A stretch of DNA of 64,000 bases from Nitrososphaerota archaeon (GCA_023379805.1 JAMCPI010000016.1:8514-72513), one strand, 5' to 3'; counted from the first letter of the stretch, positions 11,261 through 51,004 are shown. Notes: generated by a model not told the origin, from the letters alone. Numbers and translations: made by a program.

Positions 11261-11317
11261 ATCCTTGTCAGTCAGGCCTTACTGTCCATTCCCGATATAT
11301 TCTATCCGCTTGATTAG

Positions 11318-14786: not shown

Positions 14787-14847
14787 AAAGTGAATAATTG
14801 TTAAGTATAGGGCTGGTTTGTTGATATGACTATCAGAGGTATCGCAA

Positions 14848-16708: not shown

Positions 16709-16723
16709 AGTGAGCATCCTGAG

Positions 16724-18281: not shown

Positions 18282-18282
18282 A

Positions 18283-21547: not shown

Positions 21548-21551
21548 ATAT

Positions 21552-32028: not shown

Positions 32029-34149
32029 ATGGCTTACGATAAACCGCCAAAGATTCGAAAACGTGATGGCCGAGTTGTTACGTTTGAGCCTGAGAAAATT
32101 GCTAACGCGATCTACAAGGCCATGCAAAGCGTAGGTCAGGGAAGCCAAAAAGATGCTGAGCGGCTAGCGAAGAAAGTCACTCAATCGGTCGCGGCGGAGT
32201 TCAAGCAATCAATACCATCAGTCGAAGACGTTCAGGACCATGTAGAAGAAACATTAATCGAAGAAGGATTCGACAAGACCGCCAAATCATACATACTGTA
32301 TCGTAGACGAAGAACCGAGATACGTGAAGCAAAACGGTTTTTCGGCGTCACCGACGACCTAAAGCTAACTGTAAACGCAGCCAGCGTTTTGGAGAAACGC
32401 TACCTCCTCAAAGACGAGCTTGGAAACGTGATTGAAACTCCGAAGGAAATGTGCCGTAGAGTCGCAAAATCGGTAGCGGCCGCCGAAGCAAAGTACGACA
32501 GCAAAGCCGTAGCCACGACCGAGGAGTCCTTTTATAGAATCATCGCGAACCTAGAGTTCATCCCAAACTCTCCGACACTTATGAATGCAGGAACACCCGT
32601 AGGACAGCTCGCCGCCTGCTTCGTTCTCCCAGTTGGAGACTCGATAAAACAGATTTTTGACGCAGTAAAATACATGGCTATTATTCACCAGACCGGCGGA
32701 GGAACAGGCTTCTCATTCTCACACCTCCGACCCAGAGGCGACGTAGTGAAGACAACTCACGGCATAGCCTCAGGGCCAGTCTCCTTCATGCGTGTCTTCG
32801 ACACCGCCTCAGACGTCATCAAGCAAGGCGGCCGGCGGAGAGGCGCAAATATGGGTATACTTAGCGCAGATCATCCTGATATCCTCGAGTTCATACGGTC
32901 AAAGTCGAGAGAAAATTTTCTCTCCAACTTCAACATCTCAGTCTCGGTGACAGACGAGTTTATGCGCAGAGCAGAACTGCAGGAACCTTACGATTTAATC
33001 AACCCGCGAAGCGGCGAAACGATCAGTAGCCTATTTGCTAGAGATGTTCTGAACCTGATGGTGACAATGGCTTGGTCAACAGGAGACCCCGGTGCAGTAT
33101 TCATCGACGAGATTAACCGACATAACCCCACACCTAAGCTCGGAGCAATCGAGAGCACTAACCCCTGTGGAGAGCAGCCGCTTCTACCGTATGAGTCCTG
33201 TAACCTAGGCTCGATCAACCTTGCACGTCTTGTCTCAGACGGTGAGCTAAGCTGGGACAGACTGCGCGAAATAGTCAGCGTCGCGGTGCACTTCCTAGAT
33301 AACGTGATAGATGTTAGCAACTACCCGCTTACACAAATTGCTGAGGTGACTAGGGGGAACAGAAAGATCGGTTTAGGAGTGATGGGCTTTGCAGAGATGC
33401 TGATTCAAATGGGGATACCGTACGACACAGACGATGCGTTGCAGATGGGTGAAAAGGTGATGGCCTTCATCACGGAAGAGGCTCGTAAGAAGTCTGTTGA
33501 GCTAGGTGAGATGCGGGGATCATTCCTCAACTTCGAGGAAAGCACCTGGCGAGCACAAGGCTTCAAGCATCTGAGAAACGCTACAGTCACAACAGTAGCT
33601 CCCACAGGCACAATCTCCATCATCGCGGGCTGCTCAAGCGGAATTGAGCCGCTCTTCGCAGTCTCATTCATCAGAAATGTTCTCGAAGGCACCCGTTTAG
33701 TTGAGTCAAACCCTGTATTCGAGAAAGTTGCGAAGGAACGGAGCTTCTATAGTCAAGACCTCATGATGGAGATAGCTAGAAAAGGCTCAATCCAAACCAT
33801 AGAGGGTATACCTGCTGACGTGAAGAGGCTATTCGTAACCGCTATGGACATTGCTCCTGAGTGGCACGTCAAAATGCAGGCCGCCTTCCAGAAGCATGTG
33901 GATAACGCCGTCTCAAAAACCGTCAATCTGCCTCACAACGCCGCGATAGAAGAGGTGAGCGACATCTATCGACTGGCACACCGGTTAAAATGCAAAGGCA
34001 TAACCATCTACAGATACGGCAGCAAACCCGAGCAGGTGCTTTACATCGGCAGCGAAATAGGTCGACAGCAAGGTGAAACTCGCGAATATGTCGGTGCTCA
34101 AGCCGAATATGCGGGCGGCTGCCCTACACCGGGCTGCGATAGCTACTGA
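32029..34149 (+). CDS. nrdJ: adenosylcobalamin-dependent (class II) ribonucleotide reductase with an N-terminal ATP-cone
   Basis: 706 aa. ATP-cone KIRKRDGRVVTFEPEKIANAI, active-site TNPCGEQPL, CNLGSINL, and C-terminal Cys residues. Confidence 0.9.
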   Translation: MAYDKPPKIRKRDGRVVTFEPEKIANAIYKAMQSVGQGSQKDAERLAKKVTQSVAAEFKQSIPSVEDVQDHVEETLIEEGFDKTAKSYILYRRRRTEIREAKRFFGVTDDLKLTVNAASVLEKRYLLKDELGNVIETPKEMCRRVAKSVAAAEAKYDSKAVATTEESFYRIIANLEFIPNSPTLMNAGTPVGQLAACFVLPVGDSIKQIFDAVKYMAIIHQTGGGTGFSFSHLRPRGDVVKTTHGIASGPVSFMRVFDTASDVIKQGGRRRGANMGILSADHPDILEFIRSKSRENFLSNFNISVSVTDEFMRRAELQEPYDLINPRSGETISSLFARDVLNLMVTMAWSTGDPGAVFIDEINRHNPTPKLGAIESTNPCGEQPLLPYESCNLGSINLARLVSDGELSWDRLREIVSVAVHFLDNVIDVSNYPLTQIAEVTRGNRKIGLGVMGFAEMLIQMGIPYDTDDALQMGEKVMAFITEEARKKSVELGEMRGSFLNFEESTWRAQGFKHLRNATVTTVAPTGTISIIAGCSSGIEPLFAVSFIRNVLEGTRLVESNPVFEKVAKERSFYSQDLMMEIARKGSIQTIEGIPADVKRLFVTAMDIAPEWHVKMQAAFQKHVDNAVSKTVNLPHNAAIEEVSDIYRLAHRLKCKGITIYRYGSKPEQVLYIGSEIGRQQGETREYVGAQAEYAGGCPTPGCDSY

Positions 34150-34173
34150 TATCTGCATCCTCTTCACCAGCAG

Positions 34174-34584
34174 TTGACGTTGAAACCATCTGAACTGGTC
34201 AGTGCACCACGCGGCCTGCTAAAGGTCTTCATCATCGACCTAGCTTCAAAGTACCCTGTAAGCGGGATAGAGGTAACCGAGCAGGTTGGAGCGCTAAGTA
34301 AAGGTGTCTGGAAGCCAAGCCCAGGATCAATCTACTACATCTTGAAGGAACTTGTGTCGAAGAAGCGGCTTTCAGAAATATACACGCCTGACAAAGGCGT
34401 AAAGAAGTACGTCGCCACAGAGAAAGGCTTAGAGGACTTAAGGCTCTTCCGCAGCTTCGGCAACGAGATCCTGCAGAAACAGGCTGCGTTTATGTCACTT
34501 ACCTCTCAACTCATTCAAGACGAGGCGGCAACAAAAGCTTTGAACATCTACATCTCAGAGCTTAAAAAATCGGAGAAACCTTAA
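34174..34584 (+). CDS. PadR-family transcriptional regulator
   Basis: 136 aa. VSGIEVTEQVGALSKGVWKPSPGSIYYILKELVSKKRL is a PadR wHTH pattern. Confidence 0.7.
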   Translation: MTLKPSELVSAPRGLLKVFIIDLASKYPVSGIEVTEQVGALSKGVWKPSPGSIYYILKELVSKKRLSEIYTPDKGVKKYVATEKGLEDLRLFRSFGNEILQKQAAFMSLTSQLIQDEAATKALNIYISELKKSEKP

Positions 34585-34702
34585 ACAGGCTCGCCCAGCC
34601 TCGCTTTGACTAGCTGAGTCAAGAGTCGGTTGAAACAGCAGTTCCGCCTAATTTCTACTGGTTCCTTTAATACCGCTTGACTCTATGTATCTACCTAGTT
34701 AG

Positions 34703-35716
34703 GTGATTGAACTGGAAGACAGAGTCGCGCTGTTAACAATCGTTCTAGCTGCAATACTGGCTGCAGGGATAACCGCGCTAGTTCAACCCGGAATCACTCA
34801 AAACTTAATCGCATCAACTGGGCGACCAACATCTACATCCACGGTAACATCAACCACAGTTTCAACAACAATCATATTGACCTCGACAAAAGTAACAAAT
34901 ACTGAGACAATTACAACAGCCACCACAAGCACAAGCACAGTCACAGCGACAGCAACTGTTACAGTCACCTCAACTGTAACGACCACTGTCACAGCAACAG
35001 CCACAACCACGACTACGAAAACTACTGTAGGCGCGCCCGGTGGAAACGCTTCGGCTACACCGCAGATCGCATCAATAGATCTGATCTCTATTCAGAACGG
35101 TAGAGCCGCAGCTTGGAGCAAAACCACCCTCTCAATATTAATCACAACCAACAGTGTAGCCACGTCAGCCCCAGACGTTCAGGCTGTCAACGCAGCAGGC
35201 GGAGCCATCAATCAATGGCGAAGCGCCATCGCGCAGTTCACGAAAAACTACACGCAGTACGCCTATCTCAACAAGTTAACATTCAAGATTTACGTTCAAG
35301 GAGTAAACGACACAGCCCTGAAAAGCAAACCCGATATCAGGATACTATTCACCGACACATTACCTTCACTCCTCGGTGACACCCAACTGCTAATAATGAA
35401 CACACCTCTAATCGGCAGCGTTAACGCAACAGTCGCCGTGCAGGGGCTCAATACACAAGGCGTACAAAACGTATTAGTCCACGAATTCGGACACGCCCTC
35501 GGACTCAACCACACCAGCATCAACATCGATGCGATGTACGGTGAACGAGAGAAAACAGCGGTAAGCGGAGAAAAACTCTGCCCCTCCACCCTAGACCTCT
35601 ACGCACTAGCATCAATCTACCAGTGGATCCCCAAGGTAATCTACACCCCATACAGCGGTACCTCTGTCACCTTACCGCAAACTATTACCTACCAAACCAT
35701 ATCATGCGGCAAATAA
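34703..35716 (+). CDS. membrane-anchored matrixin-like (metzincin) zinc metalloprotease with a Thr/Ser/Val-rich linker
   Basis: 337 aa. N-terminal TM (LLTIVLAAILAAGITALV), about 90 aa of T/S/V low complexity, and the metzincin motif VHEFGHALGLNHTS (HExxHxxGxxH). Confidence 0.75.
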   Translation: MIELEDRVALLTIVLAAILAAGITALVQPGITQNLIASTGRPTSTSTVTSTTVSTTIILTSTKVTNTETITTATTSTSTVTATATVTVTSTVTTTVTATATTTTTKTTVGAPGGNASATPQIASIDLISIQNGRAAAWSKTTLSILITTNSVATSAPDVQAVNAAGGAINQWRSAIAQFTKNYTQYAYLNKLTFKIYVQGVNDTALKSKPDIRILFTDTLPSLLGDTQLLIMNTPLIGSVNATVAVQGLNTQGVQNVLVHEFGHALGLNHTSINIDAMYGEREKTAVSGEKLCPSTLDLYALASIYQWIPKVIYTPYSGTSVTLPQTITYQTISCGK

Positions 35717-35831
35717 GCAATAATCCCAAGAAATAGGCCTCACCACTATTGCAGTGACGCTTCCTGAATGCTACCCGCACTGATTCTGCAAACGTAGTAC
35801 GGCACCAACAGGTGTACGATATATTACAATG

Positions 35832-36011
35832 AACCAAAACAATCTTTGAGTTTCGAAAATGTGGCGTTAATAACTATCTATGGATGCCTGAAGATGCTGT
35901 ATCAGGTATCCATCCTCCCTTTTTTCTAATTTAACATCATAATAGTTAGTTCAAGGATGATGGAACTTGCCTTTACATAACGAGTTTAGGAAATTTCATG
36001 GGCTCAACTGT
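35832..36011 (+). repeat. non-coding repeat family, copy 1 (conserved hairpin plus T-run)
   Basis: aaccaaaacaatctttgagtttcgaaaatgtggcgttaataac..., then hairpin 35882-35891/35902-35911 (ggatgcctga/tcaggtatcc), a T-run, then ...gagtttaggaaatttcatgggctcaac. Aligns with 39004-39138. Confidence 0.8.
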
Positions 36012-36056
36012 TCATAAGATCCTCTAGTTTTTCAGTACATGGATGGACCGAGCCTG

Positions 36057-36845
36057 TTACAAGTTATCGACTACCATGTTCGGTTCAAAATCAAAGCCTG
36101 CTGCCATCAGGTCGCTTATGAATTTTGGTAAATCCTTGAACTGTAAGAAATAGTTACTTTGTAGATGAGGTGAGCTTTCTTCATGTTTAACTGCAATAGA
36201 AATATCCGCAGCTTCAAAGGCGGAATTATCCATTTCCGAATCACCTAGATACATTACTAGTTCATCATCACCTATCTTTAGCTCCTTCTTCAGCTTTGCA
36301 AAGGACTCACCCTTGTTAATTTCGACTGCATAGATGTCTACAAACGGATCGTATTTCGATTCAACCACATACAACCCCGCCTCACTGCATTGTTTAGTGA
36401 TAGTTTCAATTTTCGATACAGCACTACTTTTATTATGCGCCATTCTCCAATCAATACAAAATGCGGCCAGCAGTCCACCACTCGTAGTCTTTCTCTCAAA
36501 GAACACCTCTGTTTCACTACGCATACTTACCGGCATCATCTTCGACAACGCGGCTTCGTACGCCTTTTCGATTACCCTTGTGCGTTCTTTGATTCTATCA
36601 TCTACAACAATTATGCCTTCACTTAGCTGTATCTCTAACCCGCCTATTGCGGAAATCGCTCTGGCAAATGGAACTCGCTTCTTGATAAACTTAAGATCTT
36701 TCGTGGTGATGATTGCAACAGGGATTTTCTGACTGACAAAAGTAAGGATGCGCATCATCTTAGGTGGGATGAACGCTTTTTCTCTAGGCACATGCATTGG
36801 GCTAAGTGTTCCATCATAATCAGAGAATAGCGCACCTATCTTCAA
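36057..36845 (-). CDS. HAD-IIB sugar-phosphate phosphatase (trehalose-phosphatase-like)
   Basis: 262 aa. N-terminal ALFSDYDGTLSP (DxDGTL nucleophile motif) and C-terminal LGDSEMDNSAF (HAD motif IV). Confidence 0.7.
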   Translation of the reverse strand: MKIGALFSDYDGTLSPMHVPREKAFIPPKMMRILTFVSQKIPVAIITTKDLKFIKKRVPFARAISAIGGLEIQLSEGIIVVDDRIKERTRVIEKAYEAALSKMMPVSMRSETEVFFERKTTSGGLLAAFCIDWRMAHNKSSAVSKIETITKQCSEAGLYVVESKYDPFVDIYAVEINKGESFAKLKKELKIGDDELVMYLGDSEMDNSAFEAADISIAVKHEESSPHLQSNYFLQFKDLPKFISDLMAAGFDFEPNMVVDNL

Positions 36846-36919
36846 TCAAAGTCGCCTGTTTTTTCAAATAATCTTAAGGAAGAAATAAATATACCGGCTA
36901 CTATTTCGGGAATAGAAAA

Positions 36920-38758
36920 ATGCGCCTGCACAAGCGAATAGGCATTATAATGTACCAAACAAGTTTCAGCAAAGGCCAAGAGCTTGTGGCGCAGAGAATG
37001 GTGGCGAATTTTATCAAGCACGGTCACGACGCCTTTCTCATCACCAGCAATTACCATGACGGGAAAGAAGTTTTCCCCACCGGCTCCATACCTCCAGAGA
37101 AAAGCTATGTTTATGCGCAAGACACGGAGCTCGGCATCCCAGTTATAAGGGTAGACAGCTCAACATCTAAATGGCCTCCGCGAAGAATCTCATTCAAAGA
37201 CTTCGTTCACACCTTGGAGAAAATCGTAAACGACTTCCACCTTAACGTTTTGATAACACACAGCACTTTGTGGAACGGGCCTGAGGAGACCGCAAAATTC
37301 GTAGAGTGGAGACGTCACATCAGATCTCTGGGCGGCTACAAGGATCCTTTAGTGTTCTGCCAGATGTCTCATTATATGGAGGCTTCACCGAAGAGATACT
37401 CAATACTTGAACGCTCATTCAGGCTAGCGTGGAATAAATTCTCGTTATCACAGGTGCTCCACGCTGCGAATATTGTCCTTGTCACGACGCCGTTTGAGGG
37501 GGATGCACAGGTGAAGATGGGTGCAAGCCGCGAGAAATGTGTATTATTCCCCGGAGGCATAGACGAAGAATCTTTCGCGAAGTTTGCATCGCTGGGTCCA
37601 GGAGAGATTCGCCAGCGTTTAAACCTGCAGAAGGGCGCTCAGATCGTATCCTATCTTGGTACGATTGAGGACCGCAAAAATCCTAAAGCAGTTCTAGAGG
37701 TCGCTAAGAAGCTGCAGCATCGGAAAGATATTCACTTCGTTATTGCGGGCAGAGGCGACTCCGAGTACGCGGACGAAATAAAGGCGACCGCTGAAACTCT
37801 GCCCAACGTTACCTATCTGGGAGAGCTAAGTGAAAAAGAGAAGATACAGCTAATTAAGGCATCTTACCTCAACATAATCCTGAGCCGCCTAGAGGGAATC
37901 GGGCTTTCCCAACTTGAATTTATGTTTCAAGGCACTCCTGTGATCACTTCGGCAATGGGCGGCCAGTCCTGGCTAATCAGGCACAATCAGGAAGGTATTC
38001 ATGTAAAGGGGCCTGACGATGTAGAAGGAGCTTTGCAGGCCATAGTGGATCTCATGGACAACCCCCGGCAGTGGCTAAGGCTTTCTGCGAATGCTAAGAA
38101 CAGAGTGAAAGAGTTCACCTTTTCAAAAATAATAAGTGACCTGGATCTTGCGATAACAGGAGAACTTGAAAAGGAAAGTGGACTATCGGGCCTTCCCGCA
38201 GAGGTTCGAGATACTTTTACCGAACCTGAGCAGGTTGTAAAGACATGGTCGCATGGTTCCCGGAAGGTTGTGGCCACGAATTACGGGCTGTTCATCCAAC
38301 ATGGCTGGTTGTCAAGAAGGACGCTGGAGCTTCCTTACAAAAGTATTAACTCCATAGAGCACATCAGGCGGTACGCTTGGAAAACTCTTCTCTTTGGTTC
38401 TCTCCTCTCGACATTCCTCTTCGTTGAACCTTATTTACGCCCAATCTTTTCAAGAACTCTCCTATCGAGAATAGGGCAACTGGCCCAGACGGCTTTTCCC
38501 AACATCGCTTTACAATTCGATCTGCCAGACACATTTACAAATAATCTCCCGTTAATCCCTATATCCATAGCAATGGTCGTCTTCACCATTCAAGCTCGTA
38601 AAGGCTTCGCTCTTCACGGTGCGTCAATTAAGCCGGTCTACCTGCCGCGCCCATTTGTAGATATCATAAAATACATCAAGAGCATGGAAAACAATAATGT
38701 TAGCGTCAACATATCGTCCAAGAAAAATGACACTTTGAGTATAGAAAATAACTTTTAG
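36920..38758 (+). CDS. GT4-family (GT-B) glycosyltransferase with a ~200-aa C-terminal membrane-associated extension
   Basis: 612 aa. YLGTIEDRKNP...VIAGRGD...LSRLEGIGLSQLEFMFQGTPVITSAMGG (E-x7-E region) is typical of GT4. The tail has ...YGLFIQHGWLSRRTLELPYKSINSIE (bPH-like) plus two hydrophobic segments. The start may be the internal ATG at 36950. Confidence 0.75.
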   Translation: MRLHKRIGIIMYQTSFSKGQELVAQRMVANFIKHGHDAFLITSNYHDGKEVFPTGSIPPEKSYVYAQDTELGIPVIRVDSSTSKWPPRRISFKDFVHTLEKIVNDFHLNVLITHSTLWNGPEETAKFVEWRRHIRSLGGYKDPLVFCQMSHYMEASPKRYSILERSFRLAWNKFSLSQVLHAANIVLVTTPFEGDAQVKMGASREKCVLFPGGIDEESFAKFASLGPGEIRQRLNLQKGAQIVSYLGTIEDRKNPKAVLEVAKKLQHRKDIHFVIAGRGDSEYADEIKATAETLPNVTYLGELSEKEKIQLIKASYLNIILSRLEGIGLSQLEFMFQGTPVITSAMGGQSWLIRHNQEGIHVKGPDDVEGALQAIVDLMDNPRQWLRLSANAKNRVKEFTFSKIISDLDLAITGELEKESGLSGLPAEVRDTFTEPEQVVKTWSHGSRKVVATNYGLFIQHGWLSRRTLELPYKSINSIEHIRRYAWKTLLFGSLLSTFLFVEPYLRPIFSRTLLSRIGQLAQTAFPNIALQFDLPDTFTNNLPLIPISIAMVVFTIQARKGFALHGASIKPVYLPRPFVDIIKYIKSMENNNVSVNISSKKNDTLSIENNF

Positions 38759-38817
38759 CTCTAAACCATTGCATATCATCAACAGCGACTAATATACGTC
38801 GATCATTGGTTTATCCG

Positions 38818-38934
38818 GTGAAGGTAGCAAGCCAGATTGCAAAGAGCAACGAAGCTGAGTTGACGTTACTGCACGTCTTGGTATTACCATGGGCTGCCTA
38901 TTCTGGAGACGTATCTTATCCTGTTAGGGTTTAG
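38818..38934 (+). pseudogene. possible relic of a universal-stress-protein (UspA-like) gene
   Basis: My own translation gives VKVASQIAKSNEAELTLLHVLVLPWAAYSGDVSYPVRV*. It resembles the ...A..lA...ga.l.llhV region of USPs but lacks the first strand and everything after about residue 40. Confidence 0.3.
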
Positions 38935-39000
38935 GTAACTCTTCGTTTGGTTTGTGTGAAAGAGGCGTGTTCTTGACCAGCCGATAAGTTACCTAAACCC
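38927..39000. repeat. 14-bp perfect inverted repeat (stem-loop) abutting repeat copy 2
   Basis: gggtttaggtaact (38927-38940) and agttacctaaaccc (38987-39000), separated by 46 nt. Confidence 0.8.
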
Positions 39001-39003
39001 AGA

Positions 39004-39138
39004 AACCAAAACAATCTTTTGAGTTTCGAAAATGTGGCGCTAATAACAATGGATACCTGAAAATGTATCGGGTATCCACCCTCATTTTTTCTTCTAAATT
39101 CCCACACCCATCAGTTTAAAGTTCATGGGCCAACCAGG
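39004..39138 (+). repeat. non-coding repeat family, copy 2
   Basis: aaccaaaacaatcttttgagtttcgaaaatgtggcgctaataac..., then hairpin 39051-39060/39068-39077 (ggatacctga/tcgggtatcc), a T-run, then ...cagtttaaagttcatgggccaac. Confidence 0.8.
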
Positions 39139-39439
39139 ATTGGCACTTAGCTAGGTTCTGATTTCGGATTTTTGCCTGGCAAACAGCAAACTGTTGACCA
39201 ACTATTAGTAACTAACAAGTCAACTTTAAGTGAAATGCCGAGGGCAGAATTTGGAACGGCAATTGCGTGCCGAGACACCAACGATAATCTTAGGTGGCAA
39301 GTGAATGGATGGGTGGGTGCAGGCATGTGGCTCCTGCACCCTGTAGGGAAAATACTGACCAGCTTGTCACCTGAGCCGCCACAACCCCCCCGCTCGGAAT
39401 CAATGCATTTGTGGAGCTAGCGTAATCGATTGATTTTTC

Positions 39440-39476
39440 CAATAAAATAGGGGAGACGATCCTTACAAGATCGTCT
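39440..39476 (-). terminator. hairpin plus T-rich tract downstream of PQQ-repeat gene 1
   Basis: On the minus strand, AGACGATC-ttgtaag-GATCGTCT is followed by cccctattttatt. A similar hairpin follows the paralog. Confidence 0.5.
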
Positions 39477-39485
39477 ATACATCTG

Positions 39486-41762
39486 TTACTTCTTCCGCAT
39501 CGCCAGTACTGCTGCGCCAATGATTGCGATGACAGCTATTCCGACTGCCGCATAAGTTACTTCTGAGGGTAGTCCTGTTGTCTGTGTTACTTGTGATGTT
39601 ACTGTTGAGGTTTGAGCTGGTTGTGTTGAGGTGATTGTGGTTGCTTTTGTGGCAGTGGTTACGCTTGTTGTCGCTGACGTGGTTGTTACTGTGGTTGTTG
39701 CGGTGGTGCTTGAAGTGGCTGTAGTCGTAGAGGTTGCAGTGGTGGTTGTGACTAATGTGGAGACCGATGTTGTAGTTACTGTTGAGGTGATTGCTTGGCC
39801 TGCCGGTTTGTCGGATAGTCCTATGGCCATTAGTGTGCCAGGGACTGTAGGTTGTCCACCTAGTCCGTATCTTGGGTCTCCTGCCGCTATTGCTTGTGGC
39901 CCGGTCATTAGGAATATTTTTGAGTCTCCTGCTGAGTCTTTGCCTATAGTTGTTCCGATTACTACTGGTGCACCGATATTCATTTCTCTGAGCATCTTAC
40001 CGTTGTCTTTGTCGAGGAACCTTACTTTGCCGTCTGTGAAGCCTGAGAAGACCATTCCTCCTGTGACGACGATAGCTGCTCTCTGATGACTGTAGCTGTA
40101 GAACCATGACCATTTCACTTTCCCTGTAGCTATGTCTCTAGCGACGATTGTCGAGTTCGCGATTGGATAGTTTCTTACAGTGAAGAGATTCCCGCCCTGA
40201 ATATAGGGACTCTCCAGCAGTACAGTTCTCTGTAGAGCATCTTCGTAGAGGATTATTGCCTGCCCGTCAGGATCGTAGGACATGTCTGTTGCGAAGATAC
40301 CATTGGTCCAAGCTGGATACACTTCAGCCGGTAATGTGTGGTGTTCTCCCTTTTCACCCGGTTTGGTGGCGGGCCAGCTTATCCAGTTCCATTCTCTCAT
40401 GTCGTGGTAGCTCTTAGGATCGGGCATGTATGTCCTGATGCCGTCGGGCGGAGGTTTAGCTGCAGCTGCGCCTACCTGTCCCCTAGCAACTTGGTCTGGT
40501 ATTACATCTACCTTGTACTTTGGCTTACCTGAAGCTGCATCCATTACGTAGAAGATGCCTTCCTTGCAGCCCTTCACGTAGACTTTGCCTAATGCCTTGC
40601 TGTCGATTAGCATGCCGCTCCAGTTACAGTCATAGTCATACGGATCATGTGGGAATGGCTGTAGCCACCAGACTCGTTTGCCCTGATTCAGGTCAATGGC
40701 CATTATAGTGCTACCGTAGAGTCTTGGTCCAGGTGCGAGAGACATGTTTGAGTATGGTCCTTGGTTGCCAGTGCTTGTGTATAGTATACCTGTATCCTCA
40801 TCTACTACTGGTTGGCCCCAGTTGGCTGTTACTCCAGCCCATTTGCTTATTGGCTCTCCTGGTAATCCCCAGTCCCATTCGAGTCCCTTCTGGTTCACAG
40901 CTGCTACTTCGCTGCACGGAACATCTCTGAAGTAGCCTATGCTGCATTCTTGCAGTGCCCAGTCTTTTACTGGAGTGTCATACGGTGGAGATTCGAAGAC
41001 TCGCCAGAGGACGTTGTAAGGTGGATCCATGCTGATGCCCATTGTGACGTGTCGGGCATCGGGTGCGGTGAGTGTGCTGTGCATCGTGCCGGGTAAGATG
41101 TAGATGAACATATGGCCTTTTTCATAAGTCATCAGGTTCGCTGAGTTAGCTAGACCCATGTTCCCCATGTATTGATACAGGTTACCAGGTATGTTTGCGC
41201 AGAGGTCGTTAACGCGGAACTTCTCCTTTCCGTTATTAGCGTCGATGCCGTAGAAGTCGCATGCAATACCATAATCCAGTATTGCATCTCCGCCTGCCCA
41301 GTATCTGATGCCGTGTGAATGAATAGGCATTGCTACTTTCACGGGTAGCCGCTTCTTCACTGCCTCTATGTCGATGGTGTAGTCATAGACCCATTGCTGT
41401 TTACCGGTCTTTGCGTCTACCGCGTATGTTCTCTTGTAATTAGTCATTACGTAGACTTTGCCGTTATGGACGATTGGTGGGGTGGACGATCCTTCTCCCG
41501 GGTTAGCTGCCTGCATACCTGCAGGTGCTAGTGACTTGCCTCCGATAGGGAAGATCCACTTTACTTCTAGATTGTTGACGTTGTCCTTGTTGATCTGTGT
41601 CTGTGGGCTGTAGTTCTGAGCCCATGAGTTACCGTTGACATTCTGCCAGTCTATGCCATCATTTGCTAGTGGTGCTGCGAATGCTAGTGTTGGTGTGAAT
41701 GTGCTGAATGCCAGTATTACAAGTATTATACAGTTAGTTATCCAATATTTGCTTGATAACAT
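39486..41762 (-). CDS. secreted PQQ-repeat beta-propeller (quinoprotein-dehydrogenase-like) protein with a Thr-rich stalk and C-terminal TM anchor
   Basis: 758 aa. Signal-like N-terminus, repeated A-x-D-x-x-T/S-G-K-x-x-W units (AVDAKTGKQQW, VMDAASGKPKY, ARDIATGKVKW, FLDKDNGKML), about 90 aa of T/S/A/V low complexity, then GLPSEVTYAAVGIAVIAIIGAAVLAMRKK. Confidence 0.8.
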   Translation of the reverse strand: MLSSKYWITNCIILVILAFSTFTPTLAFAAPLANDGIDWQNVNGNSWAQNYSPQTQINKDNVNNLEVKWIFPIGGKSLAPAGMQAANPGEGSSTPPIVHNGKVYVMTNYKRTYAVDAKTGKQQWVYDYTIDIEAVKKRLPVKVAMPIHSHGIRYWAGGDAILDYGIACDFYGIDANNGKEKFRVNDLCANIPGNLYQYMGNMGLANSANLMTYEKGHMFIYILPGTMHSTLTAPDARHVTMGISMDPPYNVLWRVFESPPYDTPVKDWALQECSIGYFRDVPCSEVAAVNQKGLEWDWGLPGEPISKWAGVTANWGQPVVDEDTGILYTSTGNQGPYSNMSLAPGPRLYGSTIMAIDLNQGKRVWWLQPFPHDPYDYDCNWSGMLIDSKALGKVYVKGCKEGIFYVMDAASGKPKYKVDVIPDQVARGQVGAAAAKPPPDGIRTYMPDPKSYHDMREWNWISWPATKPGEKGEHHTLPAEVYPAWTNGIFATDMSYDPDGQAIILYEDALQRTVLLESPYIQGGNLFTVRNYPIANSTIVARDIATGKVKWSWFYSYSHQRAAIVVTGGMVFSGFTDGKVRFLDKDNGKMLREMNIGAPVVIGTTIGKDSAGDSKIFLMTGPQAIAAGDPRYGLGGQPTVPGTLMAIGLSDKPAGQAITSTVTTTSVSTLVTTTTATSTTTATSSTTATTTVTTTSATTSVTTATKATTITSTQPAQTSTVTSQVTQTTGLPSEVTYAAVGIAVIAIIGAAVLAMRKK

Positions 41763-41899
41763 CTTCGAGCAACATATCTTCTAGTCAGATATAAGGTGGG
41801 GTAAGACGGTATCCATACGACCAATTGCTTGATCTAAAGAGGCATGCGCATCGAAATTACGGGCTAGTGAACTTAGGCAATTATTGAGATGATGGAATA

Positions 41900-41940
41900 A
41901 AAAAGAAGGGAGCGACGATCCTTGTTCAAGACCGTCCGCT
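41900..41940 (-). terminator. imperfect hairpin plus T-run downstream of PQQ-repeat gene 2
   Basis: On the minus strand, gcggacggtcttgaacaaggatcgtcgc is followed by tcccttctttttt. Confidence 0.4.
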
Positions 41941-41953
41941 ACCATTATTACTG

Positions 41954-43750
41954 CTACTTCTTTCGCATTACTAGTACTGCTGCTGCGGCAATAGCTATTA
42001 CAGCTACTCCGATTGCTGCGTAGGTTACTTCTGAGGGTAGTCCTGATGTTTCGGTTACTGATGAGACTACTGTGGTTGTTTGAGTTTGTGCCGGTTGTGT
42101 TGATGTTACTGTGGTGGTGGCTGTGGTTGCGGATGTGGTCGTCAGTACGGATGTGGCGATACTTGTGCTTGTCTGGGTGGTTGTCATAGTTGTTGTCTTT
42201 GCTTGGGAGCTTGCTCGTAGACCTATGCCAACTAACGCTCCACCTGGACTGGCAGTGCTTGGTTTTGCACCTGCATTGACAGCTACGACTATCATTGAGT
42301 TACCGGCGCTATCTTTGCCTACTGAAGGTCCTGTGGGTATTTGGGAGCCGAGATTGAGCTTGTATATCTGTTTGCCTGTGTCTTTATCGAGGAAGGCCAG
42401 GTTTCCATCGTAAGATACTATGACCATGCCGCCTGTGACTGGTCTTTGTGTTCCGCTCATGCGTCGCTCGGATCCGGGGAATGGGCCCCAGGTCCATTTG
42501 ACTTTACCAGTGAGGGCGTCTTGTGCGTAGAATGTGCCGTTTTCTGATGCGCCTGTTTTAACTATCATCCATGAGGCTTTTCCTTGAGATGAGGCTAATT
42601 CGAGATCCCAGGTTTTCATGTATTCTGGTGTTAGGTACGCAAAGGAGTAGATTGTGCCTGCCCCGTCGGTTGATGATTCTCCGACCATGCCGCTGTGACC
42701 TAAAGGTAGGAGGACATTATTTTTGTCACATTTTGCACAGTTTCTTCCCACATCGGTCATCTCCATTTTTCCTGCTCCTGCCCACGGTAGAGTAAGCATC
42801 TCTTTGAAGCCTTCCCAGTTACCTGTGACGTGGTTGTACGTTGGTAAGCGATCTTTGTCGAGAACTGGTGCGGGATCGTAAATTATGTTTGCTCTGAACT
42901 TTTCACCGTATAGCGAAGTGATTGGGTCAAATCTCCTCAAAGGTTTGCCTGTGGCAGCATCGATGTAATTCAGAATTCCGTCTTTGCACGCTTTTACTAG
43001 AGCCTTTCCAGTGGTTCCTAGTCCTGGAACTTCTATAAGCATGGGGGAGTAGAATCCACAGTCCATGTCGTATGGGTCGTGCGGATATTCTGAGACCCAC
43101 CACTTCATTTTACCCTTACTCAAGTCGAAGGCTACTAGGCTGCTGCCGTATAGATTTGGTCCTGGCCTAGAAGTGAGGTTTGAGTAGGGACTCTGGTTGC
43201 CGGTCGCTATGTACATTGTATCGGTGTCCTCGTCAATTATTGGCATACCCCAAGTTGCACTTACACCGTTGAGTTTGTGCGGAGGTTGTCCAGGTACTGC
43301 TTGCCAGTCGTATTCAAGCAGGGATTTGTCGCGCTGCGCCACTGTTTGACAAGGAGTGGTCACGAAGTAGCCAATATCACAGTTTTCTAGCGCCCAATCC
43401 TTGGTAGGCTTGTCCTGAGGTGGTTGTAAGAATACTCTCCAGACTATTTGCTTTGTATCCATATCCATGCCGCCAATCCAGTTTCTGAATGAGGAAAAGT
43501 CACCCTGTAGGCTGCCGTATAGACCCACGATGTACTGATTCCCTTTATCCCAAGTAGCTATTTCGGCTGTACCGATGCTTCCTATTAGTGCGTTAGGTGC
43601 CTGTTTGTAGATACTGCCAGGAACATTCAAACAGAGATCAGTGATCCTGAAATTCTCTTTACCTGTATCGGCGTTTATTGAGTAGAAGTCGCAAGCTATT
43701 CCACCTATCAGTATAGCGTTTCCTTTTTCCCAATATCGGAAGGGTTCTGT
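41954..43750 (-). pseudogene. 5'-truncated paralog of the PQQ-repeat beta-propeller protein
   Basis: The frame is open upstream of the track's TTG start. My translation reads *TEPFRYWEKGNAILIGGIACDFYSINADTGKENFRITDLCLNVPG..., which aligns with residues ~152 onward of the 758-aa neighbour (IRYWAGGDAILDYGIACDFYGIDANNGKEKFRVNDLCANIPG). The signal peptide and about 150 aa are missing. The in-frame stop (43751-43753) lies inside the transposon end. Confidence 0.7.
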
Positions 43751-43767
43751 CTAGTTAAGGTACATAG
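43743..43767 (+). repeat. left terminal inverted repeat of the transposon
   Basis: GGTTCTGTCTAGTTAAGGTACATAG. Imperfect pairing extends about 9 nt further outward. Confidence 0.85.
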
Positions 43768-43775
43768 TATAAATA
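43768..43775 (+). promoter_or_regulatory. TATA-box-like element for the S8 peptidase operon
   Basis: tataaata is centred about 32 nt upstream of the TTG start at 43803. This fits a (near-)leaderless archaeal transcript. Confidence 0.4.
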
Positions 43776-43802
43776 TGCGAGCATTTACAAAGCCTGTCAA
43801 GA

Positions 43803-45974
43803 TTGGGCATTAAATCCTCTAAACAAGATGATTTCATAATCGTATCTCCGCATCCAATTTCAGTTACAAGAGAGATAGTTGGAGGAGGCGCGCCCATACC
43901 TGATGATGAAAAGAAGAAAATCAGGGATGAGATTGATGGCAGGCACCTTGACAAAAAGATACATTCGACATCATCCGCGCTCAGGGATAAGGAACTTCAT
44001 GATGAAAGCAAAATCTATTTTATAGCTGAAACCACCCCAAAAGCCACTGCCTCGCAAATAGACTCTGCACTAACGACGCTCAAAGCTGAAGTTCACTCAC
44101 ATCTTGGTAAAGAACACAAGTTGCTACTGGTATCTGCGCCACAAATTACGCTTGACCACTACATCTTTAAGGGTCTGCCACTAGCAGTTAAGAAACCGTT
44201 TGTTGATTTTCGGCCTCTCGAGTTAAAGGAGCAAATCAGCGAAGATATTCTGGATGATAGCAATTGGACTAATGAAGCTAAACCTTTGGTAATACACCTA
44301 ATCCCTAACGTAGATACGCGCCGAACCGAGCGTTACTTTAAGGAATTGGCACAGTATTTTGAAACCAATAAGGTGCCGATACTCTGGAAAACACCGGTTG
44401 AGTACGGCGCACTAATAGTAGTAATGAATGGTAAAGTAGCTAAGAATCTACTAGAGCAGTCAAATTACATCTTTAAGATTCATCGCGTGCCTCGCGGTAT
44501 CCTCACGACTATACCTCGTGACGGTTCTGTGAAAATACCACGCATTAAAGCCAAGTCTTCATCTGTTGAATTAGCGCCCACTTCCTCTGCTAATGCATTA
44601 CCTGTTGTATGCGTGGCAGATAGTGGTGTGGATATAATACCAGCTCTTTCAGGCCATATTGTTGGACGAAAGAAATACCCTAATTTTGGTAGTCCAGATG
44701 ATGGCAGAGATCCAAGAGGCCATGGAACGCCAATTGCATGTCTTGTAGTTCATGGCGAATGTAATGGTTCTCCTAATGGGAACCCCAGAGCCAGAATAAT
44801 ATCGCATAAGATCTATTCGGATCAGAACAGGGACGATGCCCTTCAAGGGATGTTTGAAGCGATAAGAGAGAACTCATCGGAATCAAAAATATTCGTTTCG
44901 TCAGTAAACTTTGAAAACGCGGATCATGCTTTGCCAACTTTTGCTCTACTGGATAAAATAATTCAAGAGCGTAACATCTGTTTTGTGTCCAGTGCAGGCA
45001 ATATAGACGATGAATTGAAGGAGGTAATAGACCGATACCCAACATATATTCAGAATTACCATGTTCTTCACCCAGCTCAGAATGCACATGTCATAGGGGT
45101 AGGTTCGATTGCGAGAAAGGCGAATGCGGATTCGGTAGCGCGGCGTGGCGAGCTTTCGCCTTTTACTAGATGTGGCAAGACTCTTAAGAAGCTATACGAT
45201 GTTTGCAAGCCAGATATCGCAGAACACGGTGGTAACATCTGCCACAACTTTCACACAAGCGAGATAGGCGTATCCTCATTCTGTAAAAATGGTGACCCAT
45301 CTGATGACTTTGCGGGTACAAGCTTTTCAGCACCGCTTATAGCTGGGCGACTAGCCGAGATTGTAGCTAAGTATGGGCACCGTATAAGAAATGCTGAGAC
45401 GTTCAAGGCAGTCCTATTCATGTTCTGCGATAATCGCAATCTCGCATGCTGTGGACATGGCACGCCTCAACATACTCTTGGAGCAGAACCCGATAGCGCT
45501 GTTTTCGTATCAGAAGGGAATATTCGCCTCTCAGACCTTACCATAAAGGGTTCAGAAACCGAATACTGGGATGAAATAACTATCGGCGTTCCCAAGGGCG
45601 TTAGGGAACTCGAAATATGCTTGGTTCATTCCGATGATTATAACGGAATGAGCGAACCAAGCTTGGACACGTATCTTGAAGTCGAAGCTTGGAAAACTGG
45701 ACGAGAAAACTCTCCAGTTGATCCCACCTACGCATCCCCGCGAAAATCGTACGTTAGGTTTCTAAGCTGGAATTTCAAGACCCATAGTATGGAAGGTCAA
45801 TGGAGGCTTAAGATCATCCCACAAACAACAGAAATCATGAACCATCGCGAGAGAAAAGGCATTACAGTGAGGTATGGATGCGTAATCAAGCTGACATCCC
45901 GTAGCGCGATAACTACCACAACTTTGACAAATCTTGCTCAGCAACAAATGCGGAGATGGGGCTTAACCAGATGA
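43803..45974 (+). CDS. cytoplasmic S8-family (subtilisin-like) serine peptidase with an unknown ~260-aa N-terminal region and a ~170-aa C-terminal domain
   Basis: 723 aa. Catalytic triad contexts VVCVADSGVD (Asp), PRGHGTPIA (His), FAGTSFSAPLIAG (Ser), and oxyanion SSAGNID. No signal peptide or TM. The segment before the catalytic domain (ILWKTPVEYGALIVVMNGKVAKNLLEQSNYIFKIHRVP) looks like a subtilase I9-type prodomain. TTG start. Confidence 0.85.
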   Translation: MGIKSSKQDDFIIVSPHPISVTREIVGGGAPIPDDEKKKIRDEIDGRHLDKKIHSTSSALRDKELHDESKIYFIAETTPKATASQIDSALTTLKAEVHSHLGKEHKLLLVSAPQITLDHYIFKGLPLAVKKPFVDFRPLELKEQISEDILDDSNWTNEAKPLVIHLIPNVDTRRTERYFKELAQYFETNKVPILWKTPVEYGALIVVMNGKVAKNLLEQSNYIFKIHRVPRGILTTIPRDGSVKIPRIKAKSSSVELAPTSSANALPVVCVADSGVDIIPALSGHIVGRKKYPNFGSPDDGRDPRGHGTPIACLVVHGECNGSPNGNPRARIISHKIYSDQNRDDALQGMFEAIRENSSESKIFVSSVNFENADHALPTFALLDKIIQERNICFVSSAGNIDDELKEVIDRYPTYIQNYHVLHPAQNAHVIGVGSIARKANADSVARRGELSPFTRCGKTLKKLYDVCKPDIAEHGGNICHNFHTSEIGVSSFCKNGDPSDDFAGTSFSAPLIAGRLAEIVAKYGHRIRNAETFKAVLFMFCDNRNLACCGHGTPQHTLGAEPDSAVFVSEGNIRLSDLTIKGSETEYWDEITIGVPKGVRELEICLVHSDDYNGMSEPSLDTYLEVEAWKTGRENSPVDPTYASPRKSYVRFLSWNFKTHSMEGQWRLKIIPQTTEIMNHRERKGITVRYGCVIKLTSRSAITTTTLTNLAQQQMRRWGLTR

Positions 45975-46594
45975 TTAATTCGAATGATGTTCGTCCTTCA
46001 ACCAAGGTAGTAGGCCAATTTGAAGAGATCATAATTGCTCAACTGGTAAATCATTTCACGTCTCTTGGGTATAGTGCTATCCCCCATGCTAGATTCAACA
46101 TCGCTTGGGGCAGTATTCTTTCAGATCTAGATGTTTTGCTGATAAAAGGTAACTCACTAACCGTTATAGAAGTCAAATCTAAACACGACAATATAGCGCG
46201 TGCAAGACGCCAGTTAAGGGGGATTGCTGATTACATAGATTATGCATATGTTGCAACAGACAAGATACTAAAGCGATGGGATGAGCCTAAAGTAGGATTG
46301 CTATTTGTCGATAAGAAAGGCGTTAAGTTAGTAGTGCATGCTAAGCAATTTACGAGCAGACCCTCTGCTAGGTCTCTTGTGGCTCTACAAAAGAAGTGCC
46401 TCCTTCGCTTCTTAGGTTATAGAAACTACAATTACATGCGGAAATTCAACATAGCCGAGCAGATTAGAGGCGCAGGAGAGGCGAAATCGTTACGCCAATG
46501 TTTGAGTGAAGTAGTGGTTTGTGGCCAGCGCTGTGATTTAGACTGCCCTGTTTGGAACTTTATTGCCCAGAACTCTCAGAAACCCCAGAGCTAG
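45956..46594 (+). CDS. PD-(D/E)xK (restriction-endonuclease/Hjc-like fold) nuclease-like protein
   Basis: 212 aa. FEEIIIAQL (helix with Glu), SDLDVLLI (Asp) and VIEVKSK (E-x-K) appear in the canonical order and spacing. It overlaps the S8 gene. An alternative in-frame ATG at 45971 gives an ATGA start/stop overlap. Confidence 0.6.
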   Translation: MGLNQMINSNDVRPSTKVVGQFEEIIIAQLVNHFTSLGYSAIPHARFNIAWGSILSDLDVLLIKGNSLTVIEVKSKHDNIARARRQLRGIADYIDYAYVATDKILKRWDEPKVGLLFVDKKGVKLVVHAKQFTSRPSARSLVALQKKCLLRFLGYRNYNYMRKFNIAEQIRGAGEAKSLRQCLSEVVVCGQRCDLDCPVWNFIAQNSQKPQS

Positions 46595-46895
46595 ATTTCT
46601 GAATCTTACCCCTAATTCGCCGCTCCCATTCGTCGTACCCAACTACGCCTTTCTCTTCCAGAAGCTCGACTAATGAGGTTAACATAGTGTCGTGCATCCG
46701 TACCTCTTGCTTAACTTGATCAGTCTCGCTTGCGATGCCCTCAACTTTGAAAGAGGGTAGAAGGATGCCCTTATCGGATAGGTGAGCAATTACGATGTTT
46801 CGGATAACTTCTGAATCGCCATCGCCTAGCGTTCCTTTCAGCTCGTCTATGACCTTCCAAACGCCTTCTGGAAGTGATACTAGTGCGCGCCTCAT
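46560..46895 (-). CDS. ribbon-helix-helix (CopG-like) protein
   Basis: I place the start at the internal ATG (MRRALVSLPEGVWKVIDELKGTLGDGDSEVIRNIVIAHL is an RHH pattern). That ATG overlaps the transposase TGA as ATGA (46892-46895). The 3' end overlaps the convergent nuclease-like gene by 35 nt. Confidence 0.55.
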   Translation of the reverse strand: MRRALVSLPEGVWKVIDELKGTLGDGDSEVIRNIVIAHLSDKGILLPSFKVEGIASETDQVKQEVRMHDTMLTSLVELLEEKGVVGYDEWERRIRGKIQKSSSGVSESSGQ

Positions 46896-47782
46896 GCTCT
46901 CACCACTAACTCCATAGCGTGTCCCGCTATCTTTTCTTGCTTTGTCTTTTCGGTTGTGGCTAGTCTTATCAGGTTCTTCCACCCTTTCACTTCTATGCCT
47001 GCCGCTTGAGCTGGCGTCATCTTTATGCTTTGGTGTTCGCGGCAGAAGTTATAGTGAGTGACCCAGCCATCTAAGAGAGCTTGAGCGGTTGCCTTGCTCT
47101 TTAATCCTCTCATCGGCTTTGTTCTATCCTTAAGTGATCCGTGTAACCTCTCTACTATGTTGTTTGTCTCTCTCGCACGTATGCCTACACGCTTGACTAG
47201 CTCAGGCTGACTAACCTTGTTTGGATTACCGAAGGCAAACCTAAAGGCGTCATCGTAGGTGTTTGAGCCGTCCACAAAGATTGCGTTTGGTTGCGGGTTG
47301 CATCCTTCCTTAATACGCTTGAATTGCTGATATGTTTCGGCTAGGCTTCTACTGTTTGACAGGTATGATGCGACTAGAAAGCGGGTTTCCTCATCGATTG
47401 CCTCCCAGAACCACCTATTCGAGCCGTCAATCTTTACTACGGTTTCATCGTGGTGGATTTTGCCTGATACGGTGGGTGTTAAGGTTCTTGCGTATTCAGC
47501 TGCTAATGCGCTGAACTTCTGAACCCATATCCAGATTGTTCCCTGATTTACTTCTTCTCCTAAGATGTCTCTTAGCTGTCTCTGAACTTTGCGAACCGAT
47601 AATCCTTCAAAGTATAGGTTCATCGCGGCAACCACGATATGCTGGTTAACTCTCATTCGTGGTAATTCGTTTCCATTGTCAACAAAGTGGTGTCCACATT
47701 CTTTGCATAGGTAGCGCTGAAGGTTGCCCTTCATACCGTGCTTAACCACATCTGCGCTTTGGCAGAATTTGCAGGTCGCCAT
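46892..47782 (-). CDS. IS6-family DDE transposase with an N-terminal zinc-ribbon
   Basis: 296 aa. CKFCQS...QRYLCKECGHHF (zinc ribbon). DDE blocks HHDETVVKIDG...WFWEAID, IFVDGSNTYDDAF, ETNNIVERLHGSLKDRTKPMRGLKS, matching the IS6/IS26-type pattern (from memory). Confidence 0.85.
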   Translation of the reverse strand: MATCKFCQSADVVKHGMKGNLQRYLCKECGHHFVDNGNELPRMRVNQHIVVAAMNLYFEGLSVRKVQRQLRDILGEEVNQGTIWIWVQKFSALAAEYARTLTPTVSGKIHHDETVVKIDGSNRWFWEAIDEETRFLVASYLSNSRSLAETYQQFKRIKEGCNPQPNAIFVDGSNTYDDAFRFAFGNPNKVSQPELVKRVGIRARETNNIVERLHGSLKDRTKPMRGLKSKATAQALLDGWVTHYNFCREHQSIKMTPAQAAGIEVKGWKNLIRLATTEKTKQEKIAGHAMELVVRA

Positions 47783-47960
47783 CTTCTTCCCCGTATATCA
47801 GTTATATATCACACTATATATGTATATCTAAAGTATATTAAAAACATATCAGTGTTGCCGTAGGTGAATGTTGGTTCATTGATACATGGAACGGGATTCT
47901 TGATTTGAGCATCAGTATGGTATCGCATTTTTATACCAGCTCCGTTAAGGTCGAATAAAA

Positions 47961-49043: not shown

Positions 49044-49055
49044 AACCATTACGAT

Positions 49056-49080
49056 CTATGTACCTTAACTAGACAGAACC
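49056..49080 (-). repeat. right terminal inverted repeat of the transposon
   Basis: ctatgtaccttaactagacagaacc is the reverse complement of 43743-43767. Confidence 0.85.
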
Positions 49081-49088
49081 GTTTCCGA

Positions 49089-49104
49089 AAACCAAAACAA
49101 TCTT
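49089..49104 (+). repeat. partial third copy of the start of the non-coding repeat family
   Basis: aaaccaaaacaatctt matches the first ~15 nt of copies 1 and 2 only. It lies directly after the transposon end. Confidence 0.4.
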
Positions 49105-49158
49105 ATACGCCTATTTATTCTGGAAGTACAGCGAAAAAGTCAATATCAAGGTGATTAG

Positions 49159-50948: not shown

Positions 50949-51004
50949 TGGGGCGATGCCGAAATGCTTTTCGGTAACCACCAATTATCTCATCGAGATG
51001 CGAT

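Follow-up and report, generated by a model that had tools for sequence, protein, structure and literature searches.

Paired repeats with terminator-type hairpins as candidate att-like junctions of an integrase-less genomic island in an uncultured thaumarchaeon

Integrated elements of Thaumarchaeota are bounded by short attachment (att) sites with a median length of 17 bp and a range of 8–26 bp, of which 15 out of 68 are intergenic, and the same site can be used repeatedly by elements in tandem (Krupovic et al. 2019, PMC6563490). Loss of the integrase after integration is on record for archaea, as are core sites made of inverted repeats around an overlap (PMC8371274). The locus described here lies in a 64,000-nt stretch of a Thaumarchaeota (Nitrososphaerota) metagenome-assembled genome (GCA_023379805.1, JAMCPI010000016.1:8514-72513), which we call the window and in which all coordinates are positions. 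It contains two direct copies, A and B, of a non-coding element with a hairpin and a T-run, placed on either side of a glycosyltransferase (GT)/phosphatase gene pair. The original prediction, made from this sequence alone, saw in the element a small RNA (sRNA) gene family, a miniature inverted-repeat transposable element (MITE) or solo-end relic, or the att-like boundaries of an acquired cassette. We show here that recombination at a 14-nt core separates the with-island and without-island states of this locus, and that a second core with its adjoining arm lies inside the island. Our favoured explanation, to which we assign a probability of about 0.6, is that A and B are matching left-end segments of two adjacent blocks in a 13.3-kb island, that is, att-like junctions with terminator-type hairpins. 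What had appeared to be a structured non-coding repeat family is thereby re-framed as island junction anatomy, with true limits at 35833 and 49104.

The core repeat and the empty site of relatives

Relatives were found by a search for homologues of the M10 peptidase encoded to the left of copy A. This gave three independent assemblies, L029 and L030 (two Logan runs, SRR29054603 and SRR29054609) and L031 (an ENA groundwater metagenome, ERZ909595), whose M10 orthologues have 75–76% amino acid (aa) identity to that of the window and whose DNA is ~83% identical to it. In each, a gene for an 80-aa protein lies ~185 nt past the M10 gene, and the protein is ~90% identical to the product of window positions 49159-49401. 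All three relatives are collinear with the window to 35846 and then resume at 49091. In L030, positions 1-3323 correspond to window 32484-35846 and positions 3310-3662 to window 49091-49445 (blastn), and the 14-nt query overlap of both matches is the core sequence, of which there is one copy in each of the three relatives. Because the alignments of the relatives jump from 35846 to 49091 over one core copy, the window has 13,258 bp, measured core to core, that all three lack, and this DNA is flanked there by core direct repeats at 35833-35846 and 49091-49104. The core copies and the junctions, the latter written as left flank/core/right flank, are as follows.

35832-35846, + strand: core copy 1, at the island's left junction; its 14-nt part ACCAAAACAATCTT (35833-35846) also stands in the relatives' empty site
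39003-39018, + strand: core copy 2, internal junction between block 1 and block 2, located by core matching
49089-49104, + strand: core copy 3, right junction of the island; the relatives' alignments resume at 49091
Empty-site junction in the relatives: ...GACAACGAT/ACCAAAACAATCTT/ATACGCCCATTTATTC...
Junction at A: ...TTACAATGA/ACCAAAACAATCTT/TGAGTTTCG...
Junction at B: ...AACCCAGAA/ACCAAAACAATCTT/TTGAGTTTCG...
Junction at the third site: ...GTTTCCGAAA/ACCAAAACAATCTT/ATACGCCTATTTATTC...

The third copy had been noticed originally as a recurrence of the first 15 nt beyond the right end of a transposon, and this is borne out: the 15-mer AACCAAAACAATCTT stands again at 49090-49104, where 0.23 occurrences are expected at up to two mismatches. 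The site has 16 nt in common with B and directly adjoins the right arm of a 33-nt inverted repeat (43736-43767 / 49056-49088). The arm that follows the core in A and B is missing at the syntenic locus of the relatives, and the empty site with a single copy, by which the original prediction proposed to recognise an acquired cassette, therefore exists for the 14-nt core but not for the whole 100-nt element. The suggestion of att-like boundaries is accordingly favoured by the relatives, but with different limits: the unit runs from A to 49104 (13.26 kb), and B is internal to it. Core 2, at B, splits the island into block 1 (3,172 bp), which holds the glycosyltransferase/phosphatase pair, and block 2 (10,086 bp), which holds two PQQ-propeller genes and a transposase-bearing unit.

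Beyond the right junction, the relatives hold ~355 nt 3' of the 80-aa gene that are missing in the window (~49423-49431 versus L029 6335-6688), and the end of L029 (7091-7210) matches window 7506-7625; there has therefore been further deletion and rearrangement in this neighbourhood relative to these genomes.

Conservation, hairpins and extent of the repeat family

The two direct copies with hairpin and T-run are real: on the + strand, A (35832-35932) and B (39004-39100) repeat in direct orientation, with 82% identity over 104 columns (blastn, E 2e-19). Their alignment is uneven, with 42 of 44 positions identical in columns 1-44 and 44 of 60 in the remainder (Fisher p = 0.003), and the mismatches in the first 44 columns are one 1-nt indel and one T/C transition. 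The arm sequence is TGAGTTTCGAAAATGTGGCG..., and AACCAAnnnnAATnTTTGAGTT together with the arm can serve as a search motif. The parts of the two copies are these.

35847-35874, + strand: conserved arm block of copy A, TGAGTTTCGAAAATGTGGCGTTAATAAC, the arm missing from the relatives
39019-39047, + strand: conserved arm block of copy B, from the A/B alignment
35880-35913, + strand: hairpin of copy A, 12 bp including one G.U, 10-nt loop (35880-35891 with 35902-35913), -17.2 kcal/mol, z -4.3
39050-39078, + strand: hairpin of copy B, 11 bp including one U.G, 7-nt loop (39050-39060 with 39068-39078), from folding
35920-35925, + strand: T6 run of copy A with CCTCCC before it, a terminator-type tail
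39085-39090, + strand: T6 run of copy B with CCCTCA before it, from the terminator scan
35983-36008, + strand: second block of copy A, weakly conserved, AGTTTAGGAAATTTCATGGGCTCAAC, p ~0.012
39113-39134, + strand: second block of copy B, weakly conserved, from the shuffle-scored A/B alignment

The downstream conserved block of the original prediction is thus present in both copies, but it exceeds chance only modestly, its score being reached by 24 of 2000 shuffles. As had been stated, A and B have no open reading frame (ORF) in common on either strand; each lies between convergent genes.

The stems, given originally as 10 bp, measure 12 bp in A and 11 bp in B, and both hairpins have z values of about -4.3 against shuffles. 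The claim that paired changes in the stems reveal structural selection survives in part. Both changes are as described, since G35886.U35907 in A stands against A39055-U39073 in B, and U35889-A35904 in A against U39058.G39070 in B, with pairing kept in each case; but a third difference, T35913 in A versus C39079 in B, breaks a pair, the outermost one being lost in B. That two of three stem changes keep pairing corresponds, by our own estimate, to a p of about 0.1, which is not statistically compelling, and structural selection on the stems is suggestive only. When the diverged copy described below is added, four pairs are changed on both sides, in an alignment that is itself fitted to the model.

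In both copies a C-rich spacer of 6 nt separates the stem from the T6 run. The same build of stem, C-rich spacer and T-run stands 3' of three other genes of the window, namely an acidic ORF at ~13.2 kb, PQQ2 at 41.9 kb and PQQ1 at 39.46 kb, and for this reason the hairpins of A and B with their T-runs are most likely, as predicted from sequence, + strand transcription terminators. The consensus terminator scan calls B; A has the same build, but its 10-nt loop is above the limit of the scan. The acidic ORF itself, MSEYSSEDDMEEEDFESEEDAEDEDW, encodes 26 extremely acidic aa (13190-13315, minus strand), is followed by the strongest hairpin and T6 of the window, is convergent with a small + strand ORF that ends at 13140, and has no match in Rfam.

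Core and first arm bases together form an imperfect dyad, AACCAA-AACAATC-TTGAGTT, with a 7-nt centre, which is not significant as a fold. About 151 kb of the genome were sampled in all, including 87 kb beyond the window that were reached via PQQ paralogues (L034-L037). There is no further copy of A/B within the window with filters off, and blastn of the 87 kb gave none either. One diverged copy, at L034:5009-5098, came to light with a covariance model of A and B (26 bits, E about 0.005-0.012); its first 21 nt, AACCAATATAATTTTTGAGTT, match A at 18 positions, a level not seen in shuffles. This copy keeps both dyad arms, and all three mismatches of its first 21 nt fall inside the 7-nt centre, a placement with a chance of about 0.03 for a window picked after seeing the data. 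By analogy, the dyad may be laid out like the core site of a tyrosine recombinase, the overlap being altered in the L034 copy; we regard this as a lead, not a finding. The hairpin of the diverged copy is weak (z -1.4), and the copy stands 16 nt upstream of the first gene in a seven-gene PQQ array. With two full copies and one diverged copy in the DNA sampled, the family appears to be a low-copy one, and the instances seen are at the edges of accessory-type gene blocks. L034 belongs to contig JAMCWH010000017.1 of the same genome, where the locus is near position 32,000; L034 positions 5009-22111 hold at least seven tandem PQQ-propeller paralogues and a hemerythrin gene, and toxin-antitoxin genes (PIN, MazE/AbrB-like) lie just upstream.

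In the genome collection and in the metagenome collection, copies were sought with a single exact 19-mer of the arm each. The scan of genome contigs with GAGTTTCGAAAATGTGGCG gave 18 matches, none of which extends beyond the search word; most are in Acidobacteria, apparently in one conserved gene, and the remainder are single matches in unrelated bacteria. The scan of metagenome contigs with TTGAGTTTCGAAAATGTGG gave three chance matches, again none beyond the search word, and scans of viral contigs with four patterns gave nothing related.

Several known kinds of element were considered for the A/B block and rejected. An Rfam scan gave nothing meaningful at gathering or lenient thresholds. A tRNA search of the window found none, and a tRNA fragment was dismissed on that ground. 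The consensus features of an archaeal C/D-box RNA or of an ORB replication-origin box, read directly, are not matched, and a short ORF was discarded as not conserved between the copies. Integron cassettes have R''(RYYYAAC)...R'(GTTRRRY) boundaries, an IntI integrase and promoterless single-ORF cassettes; when read directly the block misfits the attC consensus, there is no integrase, and the enclosed genes form a divergent pair with its own promoter region.

Cargo and flanks of the island

Among named proteins, the nearest to those of the window belong to Thaumarchaeota/Nitrososphaerota MAGs. Up to copy A the gene order is RNR, PadR and the M10-like peptidase on the + strand (Pfam, NCBIfam). 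The genes and structures from there to the native right flank are the following.

34703-35716, + strand: M10-like (matrixin) peptidase with a Thr/Ser-rich linker, native left flank (Pfam PF00413; orthologues in L029-L031)
36057-36845, - strand: HAD-IIB sugar-phosphate phosphatase, block 1 cargo (Pfam Trehalose_PPase / Hydrolase_3; NCBIfam HAD-SF-IIB)
36920-38758, + strand: GT4 glycosyltransferase with a C-terminal membrane/PH-like region, block 1 cargo, divergent from the phosphatase gene (Pfam, NCBIfam)
38806-38934, + strand: 42-aa ORF like the N-terminal part of universal stress protein (Pfam Usp E 0.09, below cut-off)
38927-39000, no strand assigned: 74-bp palindrome, 25-nt arms 84% complementary, z -5.2
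39486-41762 and 41954-43630, - strand: two PQQ-like beta-propeller surface-protein genes, block 2 cargo (Pfam)
43736-49088, no strand assigned: 5.35-kb unit with 33-nt inverted repeats at its ends (43736-43767 / 49056-49088), repeats 94% identical
46892-47782, - strand: IS240/IS6-type DDE transposase in the 5.35-kb unit (ORF profile scans)
49159-49401, + strand: 80-aa Cys-rich protein, native right flank (~90% aa identity in L029-L031)

Each of the two PQQ genes has its own terminator of hairpin, C-rich spacer and T-run downstream. The 5.35-kb unit encodes an S8 peptidase, a PD-(D/E)XK-like protein (sce7726 family), an RHH-like protein, the DDE transposase, which is single-copy, and a 360-aa membrane protein. 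The 42-aa Usp-like ORF is a probable gene remnant. Its stop is overlapped by the 74-bp palindrome, which ends 2-3 nt before core 2 and could be a miniature inverted-repeat element or part of the structure of the junction. Small ORFs in the non-coding stretches of the island yielded no recombinase, and no viral, conjugative or replication genes were recognised in the island.

The enclosed genes had been described as AT-rich. This fits the phosphatase (GC 0.41), but the glycosyltransferase (0.47) is only slightly below the flanking genes. For the island as a whole the GC content is 0.455, with 0.499 in the left and 0.472 in the right flank, a modest contrast, and GC3 is lower in most cargo genes (0.40-0.53 versus 0.50-0.58).

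The divergent GT4/HAD-IIB pair is conserved at ~60-70% aa in Thaumarchaeota, Bathyarchaeia and other archaea, and in both relatives examined a gene for an MscS mechanosensitive channel adjoins it. These two, L021 and L022, are the closest homologues of the glycosyltransferase (63-70% aa); they carry the pair and the MscS gene in other contexts and without the A/B element, and their loci were rejected as a guide to the repeats, being too distant. Gene content suggests that the pair may be a compatible-solute synthesis module, to which we assign no particular product. The M10-like peptidase (34703-35716) and the PQQ protein of 39486-41762 both have long Thr/Ser/Val-rich linkers, which account for the numerous inverted matches of the DNA at 34.8-35.2 kb to that at 39.6-39.8 kb; these matches are low-complexity coding similarity, unconnected with the A/B repeat.

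Outside the island lies a decayed IS240/IS6-type insertion sequence (IS) at 50231-50949, with perfect 16-nt terminal inverted repeats AGATGTTGTTAGGATA and a transposase split into two ORFs on the minus strand (50419-50901 and 50239-50397). The loose likeness of the first 15 nt of the repeat to an IS6-like end (50934-50949) was not upheld: it amounts to ~9/13 by eye, and no local alignment picked it up. Extended homology past the core, whether between the A/B arm and the native right flank or among the left flanks of the three cores, was likewise dropped: the likenesses seen by eye, such as mismatches that are all transitions, or GTTACCTAAAC versus GTACCTTAAC, are not above shuffles.

Explanations of the junctions and comparison with known systems

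Our current working model is that each block end consists of a recombination core of 14-16 nt followed by an arm of ~85 nt with hairpin and T-run, and we infer that the three cores would be the attL, hybrid att and attR sites left by tandem integration of two blocks at a single place. It is just as possible that Campbell-style recombination brought a circular form of the glycosyltransferase/phosphatase block into the homologous arm, of 100-180 nt, of a resident block. Because no recombinase is encoded in the island, it would have acted in trans or have been lost. The hairpin, C-rich spacer and T6 would stop upstream + strand read-through (from the M10 and glycosyltransferase genes) that would otherwise run antisense into minus-strand cargo. 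Excision, if it occurs, would give an empty-site junction ...TATATTACAATGAACCAAAACAATCTTATACGCCTATTTATTC..., a junction ...GAACCGTTTCCGAAAACCAAAACAATCTTTGAGTTTCGAAAATG... in a circle of the whole island, and a junction ...CCTAAACCCAGAAACCAAAACAATCTTTGAGTTTCG... followed by an A-type arm in a circle of block 1. The transposase and the inverted repeats inside the 13.3-kb segment lend support to its reading as an island, and we consider that A and B are an ordinary kind of feature and not a new RNA gene family.

A number of observations weigh against this model. No integrase or site-specific recombinase was found in the island, where ORF scans (Pfam, NCBIfam, PHROG) gave only the IS240/IS6-type DDE transposase. 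Identity reaches 98% across the 28 arm nt past the core, for which a terminator role alone is not a sufficient explanation and which needs protein binding, RNA function or recent gene conversion. Inverted-repeat structures end 0-3 nt to the left of cores 2 and 3, an unexplained coincidence for which targeted insertion of inverted-repeat elements beside the core is possible, and the left sides of these two cores, which would be the right ends of the blocks, are not significantly similar. The 1-nt indel between A and B (TTT versus TTTT) falls at the edge of the presumed overlap, which is awkward for a strict tyrosine-recombinase site. As to polarity, an M10 homologue of 62% identity has other genes around it, and this outgroup fixes neither insertion here nor precise loss in the relatives. 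Finally, all assemblies of the organism are 100% identical over the region, the window being so to GCA_023481325.1 and to two Logan assemblies, and there is no polymorphism to use.

If A and B were instead paralogous sRNA genes carried on the island, they would give ~90-nt + strand transcripts in which the conserved, largely unpaired 44 nt at the 5' end act as a seed and the hairpin and T-run as terminator, and the link with the junctions would be incidental, or the RNA would travel with mobile DNA. A conserved 5' region followed by a terminator hairpin that varies while preserving pairing is a typical sRNA pattern, the G.U pairs make the stems perfect on the + strand only, both copies are in convergent intergenic regions without an ORF, and the diverged copy has its weak hairpin in the same position. 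Yet Rfam gave no match even at lenient thresholds; no archaeal TATA/BRE is common to the copies at a fixed upstream distance, the sequence upstream of A being native and that upstream of B unrelated to it; the best-conserved 14-21 nt are the recombination junction, 14 of them in common with the relatives' empty site; and pairing is kept in only two of the three stem changes. The diverged copy, moreover, is not free-standing, given its place 16 nt before a gene start and a hairpin that is not significant. An sRNA gene family, as the original prediction had envisaged, does not sit well with these data, nor with the absence of the element from the relatives' syntenic locus, its terminator-like build and covariation that is too thin, and we think it unlikely, if the least so of the alternatives weighed here. 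We are a shade more doubtful of a local duplication within the island, for example of a 3' untranslated region with its terminator in the course of a rearrangement, in which the repeat would have no function as a unit and the 5' identity would reflect recent gene conversion. There are just two full copies, 3.2 kb apart and in direct orientation, and other signs of decay and rearrangement are at hand in the Usp-like fragment, the IS remnants and the 355-nt deletion by the 80-aa gene; but the starts of the copies coincide precisely with the core found at the outer island junctions, a placement not expected of a random duplication, identity along the repeat is significantly uneven, and a related copy exists on another contig.

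Transposition offers a further explanation, in which A and B are the ends of a non-autonomous family (a MITE or one of IS200/IS605 type) or the core is a preferred target of the adjoining inverted-repeat elements. It draws on the outer end of an inverted repeat that directly precedes two of the three cores (38927-39000; 49056-49088), on the hairpin near each block end and on the presence of a DDE transposase. Against it, terminal inverted repeats are lacking in the A/B unit, and the two ends of the island do not form an inverted pair; similarity between the 74-bp palindrome and the 33-nt repeat is not significant; the 5.35-kb unit has no target-site duplication; and ORF profile scans found neither a Y1/HUH transposase nor TnpB. 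IS6-type elements typically have a flanking repeat of 8 bp, and the 14-nt repeat here is longer. The MITE or solo-end relic of the original prediction is not supported, given the same lack of terminal inverted repeats, nor does the unit resemble the IS ends of the window to a significant degree, and we rate this whole class of explanation as the least probable of those considered. Only slightly more probable, and still improbable, is a bolder extension of the island model, in which the 21-bp dyad (AACCAA-N7-TTGAGTT) with its arm is the recombination site of a family of integrase-less thaumarchaeal islands moved in trans by a tyrosine recombinase of the host. Such a family would stack in tandem and would carry PQQ-propeller arrays and osmolyte-type glycosyltransferase/phosphatase cargo, and in it the conserved arm and hairpin would serve recombination itself and not termination alone; the islands would be, by analogy, an archaeal counterpart of bacterial elements that exploit Xer.

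The GT4 and HAD-IIB genes of a putative compatible-solute cassette, the two PQQ-propellers and the S8 peptidase emerge as variable, probably acquired DNA in an uncultured thaumarchaeon, and the 14-21 nt site with its arm is a searchable motif for mapping islands in related genomes. Should the integrase-less tandem architecture recur, it would point to mobilisation in trans, which is little documented in archaea.

Comparison with known systems places the locus as follows. Casposons make target-site duplications of 14-15 bp, in Thaumarchaeota too, have known tandem insertions, and carry Cas1, a family B polymerase and terminal inverted repeats; the flanking direct repeat of 14-16 bp in the island is similar, but the island has no terminal inverted repeats and none of its ORFs matches Cas1 or PolB. 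Like hairpin and oligo-T terminators, A and B have a stable stem of 11-12 bp with T6 within 6 nt and stand between convergent genes; unlike them, they lie 205 nt and 330 nt past the nearest upstream stop codons and follow a 44-nt block whose conservation goes well beyond the needs of a terminator. Tyrosine-recombinase core sites (the lambda att core, Xer/dif) have inverted binding arms around an overlap of 6-8 bp. The island dyad around its 7-nt centre, and the L034 copy that differs in the centre only, recall this arrangement; but the dyad arms measure 6-7 nt and include one bulge, only the left half is present at the native site, the spacing differs by 1 nt between A and B, and no recombinase is linked to the dyad, which is also dissimilar to the 11-6-11 layout of archaeal dif.

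The thaumarchaeal integrated elements (PMC6563490) are closest. The two blocks of the island differ from them in that neither has an integrase gene, in the common ~85-nt arm with a terminator-type hairpin beside the core, and in having no recognised viral, conjugative or replication genes. They agree with them in host phylum, in an intergenic target and a direct repeat of 14-16 bp, in the single copy at the relatives' empty site, in the re-use of that site by two adjacent blocks, and in carrying metabolic genes, surface-protein genes and an IS. The locus is thus best read as a genomic island of a thaumarchaeon, bounded by short att-type repeats, in which no integrase is encoded and the two blocks have a terminator-bearing arm in common; it is of modest interest and, as it stands, a clean, unsurprising example of known thaumarchaeal island biology.

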